A DNA stretch of 64,000 bases from Candidatus Tectimicrobiota bacterium (GTDB lineage Bacteria; JACPUC01): assembly GCA_016192455.1 (NCBI GenBank), contig JACPUC010000003.1, positions 248,001 to 312,000 of the forward strand. The letters are read 5' to 3'. How positions within the stretch are numbered: the stretch's first letter is position 1; each line of letters opens with the position of its first letter. The translations under genes and the position numbers were made by a program. Positions 50,510-59,353 of the stretch are shown here, piece after piece. Under the pieces are notes generated by a model. That model had not been told where the DNA came from, made no database searches, and saw nothing but the letters and a program-made list of their open reading frames with translations.

Positions 50510-52756
50510 ATGCGCGTGACCGCAAAAACGTACACCTCTTCACGCGCGCGGGCCTATACACCGAATGCCCAGCAACTCCCGCTGTCATATCCCGAGCAGC
50601 CGACTATCTCTCTTGCCGTATCGCCCGGCCCCCGCGCCATAGAGGGTGAAACCTTTCCTTTCGAGGCACTCAGCGATATCGCCGAGATCGAGAGTTGGCG
50701 GAAGGAAATTAACCGCCCTCTATACCATATCCACAAGTGGTGGGCGCAGCGCCTCGGATCTGTGTTCCGCGCAATGATCATTGGCGCGTTCGCATCAGCG
50801 GGTGCCGATATCCTTGATCTTTTCTACAAGCCGCTGCGCATCAAGGACGCCATTGTTTTTGATCCGTTTATGGGCAGTGGCACAACGATCGGCGAGGCCA
50901 CCAAGCTCGGAGCCCGTGGCATCGGCCGGGACATCAATTCGGTTGCCCATTTTCTTGTCAGAAACGCACTGTCCGTCCACAACCGTTCTGCAATCTTGTC
51001 TACCTTCCGTGCTATCGAACGCGATGTTGCTGACCGGGTGCGCCGGTTCTACCGTGCGATTCTTCCAGACGGAACCACCGTTGACGTTCTCTACTTCTTT
51101 TGGGTTAAGACCGCCGGCTGTCCGTCCTGTGCCAACTCCGTCGATCTATTTTCATCGTACATCTTCGCACGGCATGCCTACCCCAGGAGATATCCCGAGG
51201 CGCAGGCTGTTTGCCCCGTCTGCGGGGCAGTCAATCAGGTTCGCAATGACACTCACAAAACCTGTTGCAAGACATGCGGGGCGGCTTTTGATCCGCAAAC
51301 TGGCCCGGCCAATAGGCAGAAAGCCACCTGCCCCGCGTGTTCCCATACCTTCCGGATTGCGCAAACGATCCGCGAAACGGGCTGTCCGCCGGCACACCGG
51401 CTCTATGCCAAACTTGTTCTCATGCCGGACGGGACGAAAGCATACCTGCCAGCCACGGATAGGGATCGGGCACTCTATGCCCAAGCGGAAAAGGCTCTAG
51501 GGTCCCGCAAGAACGCTTATCCGGTTGTCGCGATCGAGCCAGGCTACAATACGAACCAAGCTCTCGGCTACAATTACCGCTATTGGCACGAGATGTTCAA
51601 TGCGCGGCAATTGCTGTGCTTGTCTATTCTTTCTGAAAGGATCAGACGGATACCGGACCCGATCTTGCGCGACCTTTTCACGTGCCTTCTTTCGGGCACG
51701 CTCGAATTCAACAACATGTTTGCGTCTTACAAGGGCGAAGGCACCGGCGCTGTGAGGCACATGTTCGCCCACCATATCTTGAAGCCTGAGCGCGTTCCGC
51801 TCGAAGCTAATCTTTGGGGCACACCGAAAAGTTCGGGTTCGTTCTCGACCTTGTTTGAGGGGCGGATCAGGCGGGCGCTCGATTGTGCGGAGGATCCGTT
51901 TGAGATTCGCCCTGGCGCACGCAACGGCAGGAAGGCAAATGAGAGAGTTTTCGGCCTTTCCGAAAAAATCGGTTTCGAGATTGCTGACAGTTACCCCGCC
52001 TTTGCACAAGGAAAACGCGTCTATCTTTCCTGCGCGGACTCAAGCGCGACTGATCTACCCGACTGGTCTGTCGATGCTGTTCTTACCGATCCCCCATTTT
52101 TCGATAACGTGCATTACTCCCAGCTTGCCGACTTCTTCCACGTCTGGCAGCGCCATATTCTTGGTCCCAAGGGTCATTGGCGGGCCTACACTACGCGCTC
52201 CAGCGAGGAGGTTCAGAATACCGACGCGGAAGCGTTTACCACTCGCCTCGCCGCAGTATGGACCGAAGCGCAGCGTGTGCTGAAAGACGACGGTATTCTT
52301 GCATTCACATATCACCATTCCCGTCCCGAGGGCTGGCGTGCGGTCTTGCGCGCCCTGATGGTGGCCGGGTTCGGAATCACAGCCACTCATCCTATCAAAT
52401 CAGAAATGTCGGTGGCCATGCCAAAGCATCAGGCCAAGGACCCTATCGACCTCGATATCATCATCGTCTGCCGCAAGCGTTCCCAGCTTCAAGCACACCG
52501 CTGGAACGGAGATTTATTGGGAACGGTCACACCGCTTGCCGCCGAACAGGTTCGCCGGTTCCGCGATTACAGCCGTCGACTCAGCCGGAATGATGTGCGT
52601 GTCATCATCGTGGCGCAACTGCTGCGGCACCTTTCCGTTTTGCACCCCATAGAGGCGGCGCTACGCTTGCTCGATTCCGCCAACGGCGAAGTCGAGGCGC
52701 TCATCGATGAGATGTATGCTTCCGGCAAGAACCAGCGCGCCCACGGGAAAAACTGA
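50510..52756 (+). CDS. Amino (N6A/N4C) DNA methyltransferase with Zn-ribbon insert (DUF1156/COG1743-like)
   Basis: IHKWWAQRLGSVFR, DPFMGSGT, four CxxC pairs, TDPPFFDNV; start uncertain. Confidence 0.85.
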   Translation: MRVTAKTYTSSRARAYTPNAQQLPLSYPEQPTISLAVSPGPRAIEGETFPFEALSDIAEIESWRKEINRPLYHIHKWWAQRLGSVFRAMIIGAFASAGADILDLFYKPLRIKDAIVFDPFMGSGTTIGEATKLGARGIGRDINSVAHFLVRNALSVHNRSAILSTFRAIERDVADRVRRFYRAILPDGTTVDVLYFFWVKTAGCPSCANSVDLFSSYIFARHAYPRRYPEAQAVCPVCGAVNQVRNDTHKTCCKTCGAAFDPQTGPANRQKATCPACSHTFRIAQTIRETGCPPAHRLYAKLVLMPDGTKAYLPATDRDRALYAQAEKALGSRKNAYPVVAIEPGYNTNQALGYNYRYWHEMFNARQLLCLSILSERIRRIPDPILRDLFTCLLSGTLEFNNMFASYKGEGTGAVRHMFAHHILKPERVPLEANLWGTPKSSGSFSTLFEGRIRRALDCAEDPFEIRPGARNGRKANERVFGLSEKIGFEIADSYPAFAQGKRVYLSCADSSATDLPDWSVDAVLTDPPFFDNVHYSQLADFFHVWQRHILGPKGHWRAYTTRSSEEVQNTDAEAFTTRLAAVWTEAQRVLKDDGILAFTYHHSRPEGWRAVLRALMVAGFGITATHPIKSEMSVAMPKHQAKDPIDLDIIIVCRKRSQLQAHRWNGDLLGTVTPLAAEQVRRFRDYSRRLSRNDVRVIIVAQLLRHLSVLHPIEAALRLLDSANGEVEALIDEMYASGKNQRAHGKN

Positions 52757-52765
52757 GGCTGAATC

Positions 52766-53521
52766 ATGTCTAACGTGTATTCGATCTTTAAAATCTGCGT
52801 GCAGGCCATCCGCGATGGCGAACTTATTGAGCGCGAGGGGCACCGTGACAAGGAATTTCACTTTCAGAATTGGTTCGCGGCCCGTCTTAACACTCTCGGA
52901 TTGAATTTCGATTCGCCCGGCCGAAACTCCTATCCGGACTTCCGTCTTGTCCGTTTTCCGGAAGGCTATGAATTAAAGGGCTTGGCCTACCCAGGTCGTG
53001 AGGCCAATTACGACTGCAATAGCCAGGTTCCCTGCGGTGAACACAACGGCCGTCAAGTCTATTACGTCTTTGGCCGGTATCCGACCGACCCTGACGGCAA
53101 CCGTTATCCTGTGCTCGACCTTGTATTGTGCCACGGGAGCTTTCTGAACGCCGACAATACGTATGTTCACAGGAACAAGAGCTTTCGGGGGTTCGGCACC
53201 TACGGCGACATCCTCGTTCGCGACCGAAAGATGTACGTTGCCCCGACCCCGTTTGCCCTTGCCGAGGAAACCGCCCATCGACGCACGCTCATCGTGCCGA
53301 GCGATACTCCGGACGATGACGAACTTGTTGAGGTCGGCACGCTGACTCGCCGCGAGGTCGATCACATGGTTGTCGCCTACAGCTTCGACCTTCGCACCAA
53401 CGAGATTTCGACCACACAGGTCCCGAATCCCAATGCAGGGCGAGAGCACATCTTCAAGGCTTACCGCGTCCAGGGAGACCCGCTTGCCCCGGTTTCTCTT
53501 CGTGAAGGGGAGGCCGGATAA
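52766..53521 (+). CDS. Putative PD-(D/E)xK restriction endonuclease
   Basis: SYPDF..EGYELKG; 9 bp downstream of MTase. Confidence 0.65.
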   Translation: MSNVYSIFKICVQAIRDGELIEREGHRDKEFHFQNWFAARLNTLGLNFDSPGRNSYPDFRLVRFPEGYELKGLAYPGREANYDCNSQVPCGEHNGRQVYYVFGRYPTDPDGNRYPVLDLVLCHGSFLNADNTYVHRNKSFRGFGTYGDILVRDRKMYVAPTPFALAEETAHRRTLIVPSDTPDDDELVEVGTLTRREVDHMVVAYSFDLRTNEISTTQVPNPNAGREHIFKAYRVQGDPLAPVSLREGEAG

Positions 53522-54310: not shown

Positions 54311-54573
54311 GGAGGCGTTCTTGATGGGTTGGGTTGTTTCTTTGTGGGGGAACCTTGTTCCCCCACGCCCCCTTTTCGCGCGAGCTGCTGCGCAGCTCGC
54401 GTAGTCGGGGTGCGCGCGGAACATTGTTCCGGGGGCGAGGCTCCCGCGCGGAAATAAGGGATGAAACCTCGGGGAGACACTCCGCCGCGCCACGCTCCCC
54501 TTGCAATCGCCCCGCGCCGAACCTAGCGTTGAGGTGCAAACCTGTCTCAACTGTCTTGACGAGGAGCTCACGG

Positions 54574-55719
54574 GTGGAGCTGCCGCGCAACCCAACCCGC
54601 GCCGTGCGCATCGGCAGACTGACCATCGGCGCCGGTCATCCCATCGCCGTGCAGAGCATGTGCGCCACAAAGACGCAGGACGTCGAGGCCACCGCCGCCC
54701 AGGCGAACGACCTGGCGGCGGCAGGGGCGGAGGTTGTGCGTCTGGCCGTGGACAGCCAGCGCGACGCCGACGCCGTGGCGCGCATCCGCGAGCGCACCCG
54801 CGCCAACCTCTGCGTCGATCTGCAGGAGCACTACCGGCTGGCGGCGGCCGTCGCGCCGCATGTCGATAAAGTCCGCTACAACCCCGGCCACCTCTATCAC
54901 CACGAGCGCCGCAAGGGCTGGCGGCAGAAGGTGGCCTTCCTGGCGGAGACGGCGGCGAAGCACGACTGCGCCCTGCGCGTGGGGGTCAACTGCGGCTCGG
55001 TGGACCCGGCGAAGAAGGATGCCTTCGACCCGCGGGACTCTGTTTCGCCGATGGTCGCCAGCGCCCTGGAGCACTGCGCCTGCCTCGACGACCTGGGGTT
55101 TACCCGCTACTGCGTGTCGCTGAAGGACTCCGACCCGGCCAAGGTGATCGAGGCGAACCGCCGCTTCGCCGCCGCGCGTCCCGACGTGCCGCTGCACCTC
55201 GGCGTCACCGAGGCCGGCCTGCCGCCCGACGGCGTCATCAAGACGCGCATCGCCTTCGAGCAGCTCATCAGCCGCGGCATCGGCGACACCATCCGCGTCT
55301 CGTTGACGGTGCCGAACGCGCACAAGGGGGAGGAGATCGCGGCGGGAAAGGAGATTCTCGACGACATCGCGGCGGGTCGGGTGCGCAGTGTTGTGGACTA
55401 CGGTCTACGGAGCCTCAATATCATAAGCTGTCCGAGCTGCTCGCGGGTGGAGAACGAGGCCTTCGTCGAGCTGGCGGAGCAGGTGCGCGAGCTGACGAGC
55501 TACGCCCAGGACCACGCCCTCACCATTGCCGTCATGGGCTGCCGCGTCAACGGCCCCGGCGAGACCGATGACGCCGACCTCGGCCTCTGGTGCGGCCCCC
55601 ACTTCGTCAACCTGAAGCGCGGCGGCGAATCCCTCGGCGCCTACCCGTACAGCGAAATCCTCCCCCGCCTGAAGGAGGAGCTGGATGCGCTGATCGGGGC
55701 AAAGGCGGGGCGGAGGTGA
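54574..55719 (+). CDS. ispG: (E)-4-hydroxy-3-methylbut-2-enyl-diphosphate synthase
   Basis: [55 protein letters not shown]. Confidence 0.95.
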
Positions 55720-55741: not shown

Positions 55742-55771
55742 TTGACAGGGTGGGCACAAACCGGCATTGTG
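55742..55771 (+). promoter_or_regulatory. Putative promoter/operator of three-gene PIN operon
   Basis: TTGACA-17-CATTGT; CACAA-N7-TTGTG inverted repeat over -10. Confidence 0.45.
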
Positions 55772-55845
55772 TGGCCGGAAAAGAAGGAAAAGAACCAGTC
55801 TATTCCTTGTCCCGCGCTCGTCTGAGATGCGGTCGAGAAAGAGCC

Positions 55846-56508
55846 ATGACCATCCAAGCGCCAACCTTTTTTGAGATGTCCATCGTGATCTTGGCGCGGA
55901 TGCATAATCCGTCCATTCTCAACCCTGATTTCCTCCGCCTCCATGGCATCGTCCCCCAGGAATGGGAATTGGTGGAAGCGCCATTGTGCACTGAGCCGTT
56001 TGCGAAAGTCGCGTACAAATGCGGCGTCACGGTGCTTGCGCAGTTCGACCGGCTGATCTTCTCCGAGCAGACGGATGGTGACCGGCTTGAGCATTGCCGC
56101 ATCCCCGATATAGCCGCCAAGTATGTAGAAACACTGCCCCATGTGGATTACAGAGCGGTGGGAATCAATCCCAAGGCACGCATTATGCTAGAGGGGGAGC
56201 CAGAGGTCCGCGCCTTCCTGCTAGGGAAGTTTCTGGCTCGCGGACCATGGGATGAGCTTGACCACGGCAAGCCGCTCGTGTCCCTTTCCTTCGCGTATGC
56301 AAGGAAGGGTGGCGCAATGAATATTACAATACAGGGGGAAACGCCAAGCGGCGCCCCCCCTCGGCAATCGTTGCTGGTCGCCTCCAATTTTCATCATGAA
56401 GTTGAGCCGGGGCAAGATCGAGCCATGCAAATAAAGCAAATATGCAGGGCATGGGCAGAGGATGTGACCTGCTTCTCCCAGTGGATAGCCGCAGTGTTTT
56501 CAGCATAA
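55846..56508 (+). CDS. Uncharacterised protein (TIGR04255-like by eye)
   Basis: SIVILARMHNPSILNPDFL, LPHVDYRAVGIN, NFHH motifs. Confidence 0.6.
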   Translation: MTIQAPTFFEMSIVILARMHNPSILNPDFLRLHGIVPQEWELVEAPLCTEPFAKVAYKCGVTVLAQFDRLIFSEQTDGDRLEHCRIPDIAAKYVETLPHVDYRAVGINPKARIMLEGEPEVRAFLLGKFLARGPWDELDHGKPLVSLSFAYARKGGAMNITIQGETPSGAPPRQSLLVASNFHHEVEPGQDRAMQIKQICRAWAEDVTCFSQWIAAVFSA

Positions 56509-56518
56509 GGGGCCCGTC

Positions 56519-57145
56519 GTGTCCACCTCCACACACGAAAGATGGTTCTTGCGGGAAGCGGCGTGGGCCTCTTTTTTCACAAGACGTTCGTTGGCCGAGA
56601 TTCTGATCAATCGGCATGCGGGCGCAAGGCGGGCGATGGTCCACAGTGTCACAGCAACCCCCTTGGGAGCGTTCTTCGCAAAGCCGTTGGCCGAGGAACA
56701 AGGAGGGATTTTCTCTGTCACCGAGGCAGTCGGGCTCGAGCAGGACGCGCAAATCCTGCACGTGGTTCGCGATATTCTTCCTGCCCTGGAACTACGAAGT
56801 CAATCCGACGACACCCTTGATACTCTCCCCGAAGGCGAGTCGCTAGACGCTCTGACGGCTCAGATCATAGACGCAAGGCGCCAGTCGCTTGCGTGGTTCA
56901 TGGTACCGATAGAAGCTGAGGCGGGCACGCCGGAAGGGAGAACCAGCGAGACAGCGGAAGCGATCTCTTGCACGACATTGCCGGAATCAGAAGGAGACAC
57001 CGAGGTCGCTCAGGCAAACCGCAAGGCAATAGAGCTTCTCCGATCATGGCGTGAAGGGGACGAGCAAGAGCAAAGAGAGACGCTTGAACACCTCAAGGCC
57101 GCCATTGATGCGCAGCCCCTCTCGAACAGAAGGCGGTTCGCATGA
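56519..57145 (+). CDS. Hypothetical protein with C-terminal antitoxin-like segment
   Basis: Acidic central part; C-terminal NRKAIELLRSWREGDEQEQRETLEHLK; ATGA overlap with PIN gene. Confidence 0.55.
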   Translation: MSTSTHERWFLREAAWASFFTRRSLAEILINRHAGARRAMVHSVTATPLGAFFAKPLAEEQGGIFSVTEAVGLEQDAQILHVVRDILPALELRSQSDDTLDTLPEGESLDALTAQIIDARRQSLAWFMVPIEAEAGTPEGRTSETAEAISCTTLPESEGDTEVAQANRKAIELLRSWREGDEQEQRETLEHLKAAIDAQPLSNRRRFA

Positions 57146-57600
57146 GCGACGTGGTTCTCCTCGATACCGGCATCCTCGGCCTGGTGACGAATCCTCGGGG
57201 AGGCGAGCGCTCCAGAGCTTGCAATCAATGGCTGGAGACCGTGCTCCAACGGGGAGCAAGAGTCGTCGTCCCTGAAATTGCTGATTACGAGTTGCGCAGG
57301 GAGTTATTGCGCGCTCGCATGGAAAAGGGGCTGGAGCGGCTCAACGAGTTGGTGGGGACCCTTTCCTACCAGCCGCTCACGACCAACATCATGCGGCAAG
57401 CCGCGGCGAATTGGGCCACGGTGCGCAACAGGGGACAGCCCACGGCGGATGCCAGCGCCCTCGATGGAGATGCGATTCTCGCAGCACAGGCCATGGCGTG
57501 CGGTGATGCCGCAACGGTGGTCATTGCCACCGACAATGTTGGTCACCTGTCGCGGTTCGACGGCATCAACGCCCGCGGCTGGGACGAAGTGACTGCCTAA
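57142..57600 (+). CDS. PIN-domain (VapC-like) ribonuclease
   Basis: LLDTGILG, PEIADYELRRELLR, LDGDAILAAQA, ATDNVGHL. Confidence 0.9.
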   Translation: MSDVVLLDTGILGLVTNPRGGERSRACNQWLETVLQRGARVVVPEIADYELRRELLRARMEKGLERLNELVGTLSYQPLTTNIMRQAAANWATVRNRGQPTADASALDGDAILAAQAMACGDAATVVIATDNVGHLSRFDGINARGWDEVTA

Positions 57601-57645: not shown

Positions 57646-58275
57646 TCACGCCCTCACCCCCGCCGGCGTCAGCCGCAGGCGGTCGCTCGTTGTCAGGGTG
57701 ACGTTGTAGTTGTACGCCGGGCCGCCGAGTTGTTCCAGGATGAAGGCTTCGGCGCCTTCCGGGCCGGTGGTGCAGTCGAGCGGCAGGACGCTGCGGAAGT
57801 GGCGCACGTGGAAGCCGAGGACGGCGTGGTAGACGCAGACGGTGGAGACGACGCCGGTGACGATGATGGCGTGCGTCTCCGGGGTGATCCCCATGCTGGC
57901 GAGGAGGGCGTCCATGCGGGTGTTGTAGAAGCAGTCGTGGGTGTGCTTGTCCACCACCGGCTCGCCCGGCAGCGGCGCCACCTCGGGCACGATCACCGGC
58001 CCGGAGGTCCCCTCGATGAGGTAGTGGTCGCGCCCGAAGCGCGTGAACACCGGGTTGTCCGGCAGGCGCACGGAGCGCACGTAGATGACCGGCGCGCCGG
58101 CGTCGCGGCAGCGCCGCAGCAGGGCCGCCGTGCCGCGGATCGCCCCCTCCGCCTGCGGCCCGATGTACTTCTTGCCGCTCGGCTTGCAGAACTCGTTCTC
58201 CATGTCCACGATGACGAGCGCCGTGCTCTCGGGCGCCAGCTCGATATCCTGAAGCTTTCCGCCTCTACCGTCCAT
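57646..58275 (-). CDS. Cysteine hydrolase (isochorismatase family)
   Basis: ALVIVDMENEF, VVDKHTHDCF, TGVVSTVCV. Confidence 0.9.
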   Translation of the reverse strand: MDGRGGKLQDIELAPESTALVIVDMENEFCKPSGKKYIGPQAEGAIRGTAALLRRCRDAGAPVIYVRSVRLPDNPVFTRFGRDHYLIEGTSGPVIVPEVAPLPGEPVVDKHTHDCFYNTRMDALLASMGITPETHAIIVTGVVSTVCVYHAVLGFHVRHFRSVLPLDCTTGPEGAEAFILEQLGGPAYNYNVTLTTSDRLRLTPAGVRA

Positions 58276-58369
58276 GACATCCTCCTCGAAAGGCCGCCAC
58301 GGCCCCTGGTTGCGATGCCGTCTGATCCCCAGCGCCGGGCAGGCCGCGCCGCCCTGCCCTTTCACCAAG

Positions 58370-59353
58370 CTACCCCACCCCCGCCGCGACGGCTTCAACG
58401 ACGAGGCGGCTGCCGACGCTGCTCGGCGCGTAGGCCTCCGGCAGCTCCTGCGCCAGCCGGTGAATCGCCTTCCAGCCGGTGCAGTGGCCCGGCATGATGA
58501 TCGCGGGCGCGATGCGCCGCAGCTCCGCCACCGTTGGCCCGATGATCGGCTCGAAGATCGGCCCGGTAAGGTGCAGGCCGCCGAGCAGGGCGTGGATGCG
58601 CTCGACCCCCGTCAGCTCGCGCGCGTAACGCAGCGTGTTGATCGCCCCGGCGTGCCCGCAGCCGGTCAGCACCACCAGCCCCTTGCCGCGCACGTTCACC
58701 ACCAGCGCCTGGTCGTCATGGATGAGCGGATCGGGCCGCCAGGCGCCGTCGATCTCGGCGTAGTGGATCGGGAAGCCGCGCTCGAAGTCGGTGCTGCGGT
58801 GAATTTGCCCGGTGACGAGCACCATCCCCTCGATGAGGTAGGAGGGGCCGCGCGCCTCGACGAACTCCACCCCCTCCTGCTCGAGCAGGCGGCGGTCGGG
58901 GGCGGGGGTGTTGATCTCGTGCCCGTCGGGAAAGATCACCTTGCGCTTCAGGAAGGCGTCCGGGTGCAGCAGCACCGGCATGCCCCGCCGCCCCAGCCGC
59001 CGCAGCATGCCGACGAGCCCCTGCGTGTGGTCGATGTGCCCATGGCTCAGGATGATGCTCTGCAGATCGGCGGGTTTCACCTCCAGGACGTCCATGTTGT
59101 GGATGAGGCCGTGGGTGCTGATGCCGGCGTCGAAGAGGAGCATGGCCGAGCGCTCCCCCGCGGCAACCCGCACCAGCGCCGCGTAGCCGTGCTCCGCCAG
59201 CAGGGATTTGCGCTCCCCCCAGGTCACGGTGTCCGCAAGCTGCGGACGCTTCACCTCCTCGGTGCTGGGCAGGAAGATGTCGATGCTGTTGTCCAGCAGG
59301 ATGGTGATGTCGACACGGTCCACAGCTTTGAGATTCGTCGCCGCTGCGTCCAT
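58370..59353 (-). CDS. MBL-fold metallo-hydrolase
   Basis: AEHG, LSHGHIDHTQG, DDQAL, TGCGHAG, GGLHL, PGHCTG. Confidence 0.92.
   Translation of the reverse strand: MDAAATNLKAVDRVDITILLDNSIDIFLPSTEEVKRPQLADTVTWGERKSLLAEHGYAALVRVAAGERSAMLLFDAGISTHGLIHNMDVLEVKPADLQSIILSHGHIDHTQGLVGMLRRLGRRGMPVLLHPDAFLKRKVIFPDGHEINTPAPDRRLLEQEGVEFVEARGPSYLIEGMVLVTGQIHRSTDFERGFPIHYAEIDGAWRPDPLIHDDQALVVNVRGKGLVVLTGCGHAGAINTLRYARELTGVERIHALLGGLHLTGPIFEPIIGPTVAELRRIAPAIIMPGHCTGWKAIHRLAQELPEAYAPSSVGSRLVVEAVAAGVG

Follow-up and report, generated by a model that had tools for sequence, protein, structure and literature searches.

A candidate three-gene toxin-antitoxin-like module with a conserved head protein and exchangeable antitoxin-effector cassettes

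In a 64,000-nucleotide (nt) stretch of genomic DNA from a Candidatus Tectimicrobiota bacterium (contig JACPUC010000003.1, positions 248,001 to 312,000; hereafter the window), we analysed a same-strand trio of genes (gene 1, 55846-56508; gene 2, 56519-57145; gene 3, 57142-57600; + strand) that forms an insert of low GC content, flanked by ispG and by a convergent gene of the isochorismatase family. We put at roughly 0.55 the probability that the trio is a horizontally acquired three-component toxin-antitoxin-like conflict module, in which the product of gene 1 (the head protein) acts through an N-terminal extension of the gene 2 protein with a logic like that of toxin-antitoxin-chaperone (TAC) systems. 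This reading is built on the anatomy of the operon, the assignment of gene 3 to the PIN domain, an antitoxin motif common to gene 2 and shorter proteins, synteny and swapping among relatives of gene 1, and the occurrence of a long middle protein together with the head gene. From these observations we infer toxicity, neutralisation, binding of the gene 1 and gene 2 proteins, a direction of control (gene 1 as stabiliser or as trigger sensor) and a role in defence.

Results

Gene 1 homologues recurrently precede a middle protein and a varied effector

The neighbourhood of gene 1 was surveyed at 80 loci (designated by L numbers) from more than a dozen phyla, collected in a scan of one genome per species. 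Downstream open reading frames (ORFs) were counted from stop to stop at the 66 loci, the window included, that had at least 1300 nt after gene 1. A same-strand ORF of at least 100 amino acids (aa) started between -60 and +150 nt from the gene 1 stop at 60 of these loci, and a further ORF lay directly behind it at 55. Five of the 60 middle ORFs were set aside as unrelated neighbours (two Uma2, one TPR/PMT, one 132-aa ORF at +99 and one 1127-aa ORF), and one of the 55 three-ORF loci was judged spurious. The layout of head, middle protein of about 200 aa and small effector was present at 54 of the 66 loci. Over 59 accepted three-gene loci the median gaps were operon-like, being 0 nt between genes 1 and 2 and -4 nt between genes 2 and 3.

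The effectors themselves are diverse. By blastp, 60 third genes were divided into class A (16), HEPN (14), class C (14), class D (4), a second PIN type (4) and eight singletons, the last including the PIN of the window, a DUF7689 protein and an HNH nuclease that matches the Septu PtuB models in PADLOC. The Pfam HEPN domain was matched by six of the 11 HEPN-class members scanned, and the Pfam PIN domain by three of the four proteins of the second PIN type. A single family, marked by a conserved Arg, an S-V motif and an N-P-x-H motif, emerges when classes A and C are aligned with two singletons and three toxins linked to TIGR04255 (a second family of head proteins, described below); a profile of this family found no match in Pfam or among PDB sequences. 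The middle-protein clusters co-vary with the effector clusters. No Pfam domain was detected in 50 of the 54 middle proteins scanned, and a helix-turn-helix (HTH), ribbon-helix-helix (RHH) or AbrB domain of Pfam was absent from 53 of them, the exception being a Crp-type HTH at L059.

The relationship between heads and effectors was then read from a maximum-likelihood tree of 76 gene 1 proteins, on which the effector label needs 20 changes against a minimum possible of seven. Changes are spread over the HEPN class (eight, seven of them forced by well-supported branches), class C (five), class D (four) and the second PIN type (two), and class A is the sole effector class that forms a single group. 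The closest relative of the window gene 1 on this tree is at a Bdellovibrionota locus with a HEPN cassette. Given these effector changes, the gene 1 head is the constant part of the system and the middle-effector cassette has been exchanged repeatedly. Recurrent pairing of gene 1 homologues with varied toxins, for which the initial annotation of the window had proposed a neighbourhood survey, was therefore found (54 of 66 loci, with at least 20 effector changes).

Several of the effector and middle-protein families have features of their own. The class A/C toxin-like family (117-180 aa; L034:5514-5960, L014:5292-5645, L086:408-863) is the commonest effector behind gene 1, at about 32 of 59 loci, and occurs also behind TIGR04255 and as a two-gene module. 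Class D effectors (L002:5120-5767, L096:681-1214, L106:2916-3674 and relatives) carry a Q-S/T-C-D motif and a conserved C-terminal F-M-R-V-G-L-P, and this family without a name is common to gene 1 and TIGR04255 operons. The class C middle proteins (L014:4665-5285, L025:4651-5436) have a C-terminal domain weakly similar to the C-terminal third of the PADLOC candidate PDC-M32A (E 2.9e-4 and 8.6e-4).

Gene 3 is a divergent PIN-domain protein

Residues 5-123 of gene 3 match the Pfam PIN domain PF01850 with 25.2 bits, above the gathering cut-off of 23.6 (E 2.7e-5), in agreement with its initial description as a clear PIN domain. D8 and E50 are invariant among seven aligned PINs (gene 3 and six others), D108 and D110 lie within a D-x-x-(I/L)-x-A-Q region, and the fourth acidic position, D131, varies in the closest relatives. 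The cut-offs of the NCBIfam VapC equivalogs were missed (NF047959, 14.8 against 80 bits; NF047863, 14.5 against 140 bits), and because these scores are so far below the cut-offs we regard gene 3 as a divergent PIN and not as one of the named VapC equivalogs. It is a putative RNase toxin.

The long middle protein accompanies the head gene

The gene 2 protein appears to be made of two parts, a PIN-cognate antitoxin motif at residues ~165-208 and an orphan N-terminal extension at residues 1-~160. As a whole it has no family match in Pfam, NCBIfam or PADLOC, and no DNA-binding domain of Pfam or NCBIfam. Among 5.8 billion proteins only two relatives were retrieved (124-125 aa, alike only over the C-terminal ~45 residues), and the same index gave no candidate for a short homologue of the C-terminus. 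Short antitoxins akin to the gene 2 C-terminus were reached instead through the PIN relatives of gene 3. Four metagenome loci carry PINs 45-49% identical to gene 3, and the three with upstream sequence have an 87-aa protein (L082, L083) or an ORF of at most 119 aa (L085) in front of the PIN. The C-termini of these upstream proteins align with gene 2 at ~165-208, with L173, W177, L192 and F207 invariant, and the motif is common also to P0124 and P0125. In the metagenome loci of the gene 3-type PINs, a local hmmsearch found no match to gene 1 or TIGR04255. The gene 2 protein is thus about 120 aa longer than the 87-aa antitoxins of the head-less PIN relatives. These results uphold two earlier statements on gene 2, that it is an acidic protein of about 208 aa (208 aa, pI 4.9) and that only its C-terminal ~50 aa resemble short antitoxins of this PIN subtype.

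The length of the extension depends on the start codon. A Shine-Dalgarno-like AAGGGG stands 6 nt before the GTG at 56519; the later candidates TTG 56591 and ATG 56900 have no such stretch in front of them. At 54 of 59 loci of relatives the middle gene begins between -20 and +25 nt from the gene 1 stop. One gene caller placed the gene 2 start at TTG 56591, giving 184 aa. On these sequence features the 56519 start is favoured over later ones, and a true start near 56950 seems unlikely.

A second effector family gave the same picture. The class A/C toxin profile detected 22 loci in 19 of 301 cyanobacterial genomes, two of which duplicate loci already in the survey. With a gene 1 head the partner of the toxin has 207 and 214 aa; with a TIGR04255 head it has 207, 207, 272, 179, 149 and 207 aa (median 207); and without a head (10 loci, one of them a decayed copy) it has 118-173 aa (median 135) and starts directly at the conserved domain. 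The extension therefore goes with the head gene in two independent effector families, in modest numbers. Four of the cyanobacterial loci (L116, L117, L118, L121) combine a ~100-aa ORF in the head position with a partner of 172-187 aa and a class A/C toxin. This ~100-aa ORF could be a half-size head protein.

The operon is foreign to its host genome

Over the operon the GC content is 0.55-0.60, compared with 0.67-0.75 in the flanks, and third-position GC is 0.64, 0.63 and 0.73 in genes 1, 2 and 3, compared with 0.91 in ispG. As both measures depart from those of the surroundings, we consider the operon foreign to the host genome. The GC profile, together with the family matches of the flanking genes, corroborates the earlier placement of a lower-GC operon between ispG and a convergent hydrolase, and the ORF coordinates likewise reproduce the 10-nt spacing of genes 1 and 2 and the ATGA overlap of genes 2 and 3. 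Independent assemblies of three groundwater metagenome runs span the ispG-operon-hydrolase junctions without differences, and the junctions are therefore not an assembly artefact. No empty-site variant of the insertion was seen among the contigs assembled from the metagenome runs. Gene 1 was found in none of 40 other genomes tested as host kin, a result of little information since all of these are only same-domain relatives. Separately, a 296-nt contig identical to window positions 56814-57109 was recovered from a groundwater metagenome run of a second study.

Gene 1 defines a large family without a name

Gene 1 has no match in Pfam, NCBIfam, PADLOC (PADLOC-DB 2.0.0, library dated 2023) or PHROGs. 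A word-indexed protein search returned 243 relatives, and a profile of 48 of them matched 1933 representatives of 50%-identity clusters at E <= 0.001, 588 of them at E <= 1e-30. The best 150 of these 1933 representatives have 176-331 aa, mostly ~220-250 aa, and none carries a second domain. The conserved-looking motifs pointed out in the initial annotation proved to be the most conserved columns of the family; across the 48 sequences N21, P22, N26, P27, D28, F29, L30, Y93, Y102, G106, N108, N181 and H183 are invariant. The family is acidic (median pI 5.53, n=76, with 3% above 8) and has no conserved basic (Arg/Lys), Cys or Ser residue, features that disfavour a nucleic-acid binder, a kinase or a pyruvoyl enzyme.

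An AlphaFold2 model of gene 1 made from the 48-sequence alignment (predicted local distance difference test score (pLDDT) 92.2, predicted template modelling score 0.89) consists of a duplicated beta-alpha-beta4-alpha unit, that is strand, helix, four strands and helix, twice over, on a TBP-like/AdoMetDC-like plan. The nearest solved chains are McsB, TBP and AdoMetDC, with scores in the range that the tool terms common arrangements. RnlA, RNase HIII and SecB were not among the listed structural neighbours of the model, which leaves room for a relationship. The initial suggestion of a non-SecB third component is supported by this fold plan and by the absence of a family match. In the model, invariant residues alternate (i, i+2) along two strands of the second repeat and occupy a loop and helix start of the first, which suggests one conserved polar surface comprising the N21-L30 loop and the Y102-N108 and N181-H183 strands.

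Relatives of gene 1 occur on 23 cyanobacterial plasmids, where all are annotated 'hypothetical protein'. On an 18-kb plasmid of Picosynechococcus sp. PCC 8807 (L134; NZ_CP016487.1 4254-6004; locus tags AWQ24_RS14850 to AWQ24_RS14860), a module of 226, 197 and 146 aa sits between hsdR and hsdS of a type I restriction-modification (R-M) locus. All three genes of this module are annotated as hypothetical, and its effector matches no class profile of the survey; it is a candidate model in a cultured strain.

TIGR04255 is a parallel family of head proteins

The ESM Atlas names the cluster nearest to gene 1 'putative TIGR04255 family protein', TIGR04255 being an NCBIfam family listed as 'sporadically distributed protein, TIGR04255 family'. 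Its members have 245-280 aa and are acidic (median pI 5.13), as gene 1 is. The TIGR04255.1 model (cut-off 30 bits) gave no match at E <= 1 to gene 1 or to any of 48 members of its family, and true TIGR04255 members (>30 bits) sit elsewhere in the same genomes as gene 1 relatives. Alignment of the two profiles by hhalign was collinear over 158 columns but not significant (probability 1.2%, E 0.044; 0.1% with a 6-sequence profile). A model of TIGR04255 (pLDDT 85.5) has the element order of gene 1, with two extra strands in its first half, and 29 of the 50 best PDB neighbours are common to the two models by manual count. Judged by its sequence, gene 1 falls outside the definition of TIGR04255; we regard the two as functional analogues, and they are probably distant homologues.

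At 24 TIGR04255 loci (L086-L109), an ORF of 106-249 aa follows directly in 22 and a third ORF is present in 21. These operons share with those of gene 1 both the layout and overlapping effector families (class A/C-like, class D-like and HEPN). Eight TIGR04255 proteins had no match in PADLOC (PADLOC-DB 2.0.0), and a full-text literature search found no paper containing the term 'TIGR04255'. Some of the middle proteins linked to TIGR04255 have a weak Xre-type HTH after a ~70-aa N-terminal extension.

Discussion

A toxin-antitoxin pair with an accessory protein that addresses an antitoxin extension is known from TAC. According to a preprint, a SecB-like chaperone in TAC recognises an addiction element of the antitoxin, with competition from a phage protein, and the chaperone doubles as a phage sensor (bioRxiv 10.1101/2024.02.24.581848). 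The module described here resembles TAC in having three genes, an antitoxin extension that two-gene relatives lack, and a constant third protein in front of swapped toxin-antitoxin warheads. The antitoxin is longer than its head-less homologues in both families compared, at 208 against 87 aa for the PIN type and at a median of 207 against 135 aa for class A/C. In comparison with TAC, the protein family and its fold, the place of the extension and a large part of the set of effectors are new. The third protein here is not SecB-like and has a duplicated beta-alpha-beta4-alpha plan, and the accessory gene comes first in the operon. The chaperone addiction (ChAD) extension of TAC is C-terminal, whereas the extension here is N-terminal and no aromatic ChAD-like pattern was detected in it. 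The toxins of TAC are HigB, MqsR, HicA and CmdT, compared with PIN, HEPN, HNH and unnamed families here. With type II VapBC systems the trio shares the PIN of gene 3, the ATGA overlap and a gene 2 C-terminal motif like that of the 87-aa antitoxins of related PINs, and it differs from them in the 208-aa gene 2 protein without a recognisable DNA-binding domain and in the conserved third gene upstream.

In the mechanism that we propose, gene 3 would be a PIN RNase toxin held by the C-terminal ~45 residues of gene 2, and the preceding ~160 residues would be an extension that occurs only together with a head gene. Gene 1 would most likely bind this extension, govern the stability or availability of the antitoxin and keep it functional; if gene 1 were lost or titrated, for instance by an invading element, the toxin would be freed. 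The logic of TAC would in that case be realised with an unrelated fold and with an N-terminal instead of a C-terminal extension. The foreign composition of the operon, the plasmid-borne homologues and the modules located inside a type I R-M locus or beside BrxL, a type I S subunit or a ResIII gene speak for this reading, as do the similar operons headed by TIGR04255. A wider version of this proposal is possible but distinctly more tentative. In it, gene 1 and TIGR04255 would make up a large, undescribed superfamily of heads that govern interchangeable antitoxin-effector cassettes, with PIN, HEPN, HNH and at least three unnamed toxin families as effectors, through the N-terminal extension. The head would be the infection sensor of a new and widespread modular abortive-infection class, a second independent solution of the TAC type.

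Several observations weigh against a TAC-like role of gene 1. About 17 gene 1 loci have no cassette (solo loci), among them 11 that form a clade of magnetotactic Nitrospirota and four from cyanobacteria; gene 1 can therefore persist by itself. The middle proteins of the HNH module and of the second PIN modules are homologous over their full length (L070:980-2206 and L074:4660-5300 compared with L050, L051, L058 and L032, with gene 1 proteins 58% identical); one middle-protein family hence serves both PIN and HNH effectors, and a strictly toxin-specific antitoxin role fits this poorly. The N-terminal extension of gene 2 has no relatives among the 5.8 billion proteins, and its coding status accordingly rests on position, ribosome-binding site and codon-position GC. 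A head protein that stays the same while cassettes change should have a conserved feature to recognise, and the searches of the middle-protein extensions gave little of the kind. No common linear motif emerged (a one-occurrence-per-sequence search scored 320.7, against 304.5 ± 7.6 in shuffles), and the extensions are not enriched in aromatic residues or Trp. Clusters of Ser and Thr (S/T-rich pentamers) occur in 19 of 52 extensions compared with 12.9 ± 3.0 expected, a count reached by 24 of 500 shuffles; S+T make up ~20% of the first 60 residues of middle proteins against 14.5% overall, as in many disordered segments. Comparison of extensions across effector classes gave top scores at noise level among 1354 pairs, with no tracking of gene 1 relatedness. 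With regard to a defence role, 50,697 phage records and IMG/VR yielded no gene 1 homologue, and integrase, transposase, BrxL, type I S subunit or ResIII neighbours were present at only seven of 30 chromosomal loci, whose flanks comprise 109 ORFs of 150 aa or more. The remaining neighbours of these 30 loci are mostly housekeeping genes, and such scattered genomic placement is typical of toxin-antitoxin modules.

The solo clades are represented by L062:3977-4672 with ten related Nitrospirota loci and by L019:3944-4759. In Ca. Magnetobacterium the solo gene 1 lies near ORFs that by eye are ispD- and ispF-like, and adjoins a macro-domain-like ORF. The presence of isoprenoid genes near this gene 1 and near that of the window (ispG) is probably a coincidence.

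Of the other explanations, the one that stands up best, though it is unlikely, takes gene 1 as a nucleic-acid-binding subunit that targets or senses for a nuclease effector in the manner of RnlA, with gene 2 as a plain inhibitor. Two TBP-like domains of RnlA are reported to precede its HEPN domain and to be needed for RNA substrate binding, and RnlA/LsoA resembles the present module in tying a tandem TBP-like module to a defence nuclease. It differs in that the TBP-like domains are fused to the nuclease and bind RNA, while gene 1 encodes a separate acidic protein. The composition of the gene 1 family (median pI 5.53; invariant N, D, Y, H, G and P; no conserved Arg or Lys) speaks against such a subunit, the fold scores are within the range of common arrangements, and the longer middle protein that accompanies the head gene is left unexplained.

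Three-component systems with a transcriptional regulator, such as omega-epsilon-zeta and paaR-paaA-parE, provide a precedent for gene 1 as the autoregulator of its operon. This would agree with the position of gene 1 at the head of the operon, with the lack of an HTH, RHH or AbrB domain in 53 of 54 middle proteins, with the TBP-like fold plan and with the small inverted repeats in the leader. We nevertheless consider it rather improbable, as the family is acidic without conserved basic residues, a repressor role gives no reason for an antitoxin extension, and some middle proteins linked to TIGR04255 have a weak Xre-type HTH of their own. Equally improbable in our estimate is an enzymatic role, in which gene 1 would attach a covalent modification to the middle protein, to the effector or to some target in the cell, on the model of the MNT proteins that AMPylate HEPN toxins in type VII systems; it too would leave the antitoxin extension unexplained. 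The nucleic-acid subunit, the repressor and the modifying enzyme each explain less than the TAC-like reading. That genes 2 and 3 are a plain two-gene vapBC pair, with an unrelated gene just happening to precede them, is very improbable in the light of the survey: the 80 other gene 1 loci contain no close relatives of these two window genes and a 10-nt gap by itself proves nothing, but the architecture recurs at 54 of 66 loci in many phyla and the antitoxin is ~120 aa longer than in head-less relatives.

A full-text literature search found no description of the three-gene architecture and no experiment on any of its members, supplements and subscription-only journals being outside its scope. 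If the TAC-like reading is true, about two thousand clusters of 'hypothetical protein' and TIGR04255 would gain a context as the constant part of a modular three-gene system, a toxin or defence system whose warheads are exchanged freely between phyla. It would be a second example, beside the SecB-type TAC, of toxin control through an add-on antitoxin segment. Several unnamed toxin families would come into view, one of which makes up about half of the surveyed cassettes, and cultured cyanobacteria would provide testable models, such as the Picosynechococcus sp. PCC 8807 plasmid with its module between hsdR and hsdS.

Leader and neighbouring features

The features of the operon, its leader and its flanks are collected in Table 1. 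The reading frame of gene 1 is already open from a GTG at 55750. The operon had initially been credited with its own promoter and a palindrome, and this stands in part. A perfect TTGACA and short repeats are present in the leader; the -10 element is weak, a consensus promoter scan (at least four of six matches per hexamer) called no + strand promoter there, and the palindrome has arms of only 5 nt. The longer inverted repeat at 55784-55808 could be an operator or a chance match.

Table 1 Coordinates of the operon, its leader elements and its flanking genes in the window.
Feature	Position	Strand	Remarks
Gene 1, head protein	55846-56508	+	220 aa from ATG, pI 5.8; family without a name
Gene 2, extended antitoxin-like protein	56519-57145	+	208 aa from GTG, pI 4.9
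Gene 3, PIN-domain (VapC-like) putative RNase toxin	57142-57600	+	152 aa; PF01850 25.2 bits
ispG (GcpE), upstream flank, outside the module	54334-55719	+	E 9.6e-100; third-position GC 0.91, host-like
Isochorismatase-family hydrolase, convergent downstream flank, outside the module	57646-58398	-	E 1.7e-30
Possible promoter	55742-55770	+	TTGACA 55742-55747, 17-nt spacer, weak -10 CATTGT 55765-55770; read from the sequence
Short inverted repeat CCGGC/GCCGG, 5-nt arms	55761-55765 and 55774-55778		Read by eye; overlaps the possible promoter
Inverted repeat, 5' leader	55784-55808	.	10-nt arms, 90% complementary, 5 nt apart; sole repeat reported by the tool

A second low-GC island (0.55-0.58) lies 2.3 kb upstream of the operon, at window positions 50510-53521. 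Its two products, a 748-aa protein carrying an N6_N4 DNA methylase domain and, behind it, a 251-aa protein that belongs to no Pfam family, are probably a restriction-modification pair.

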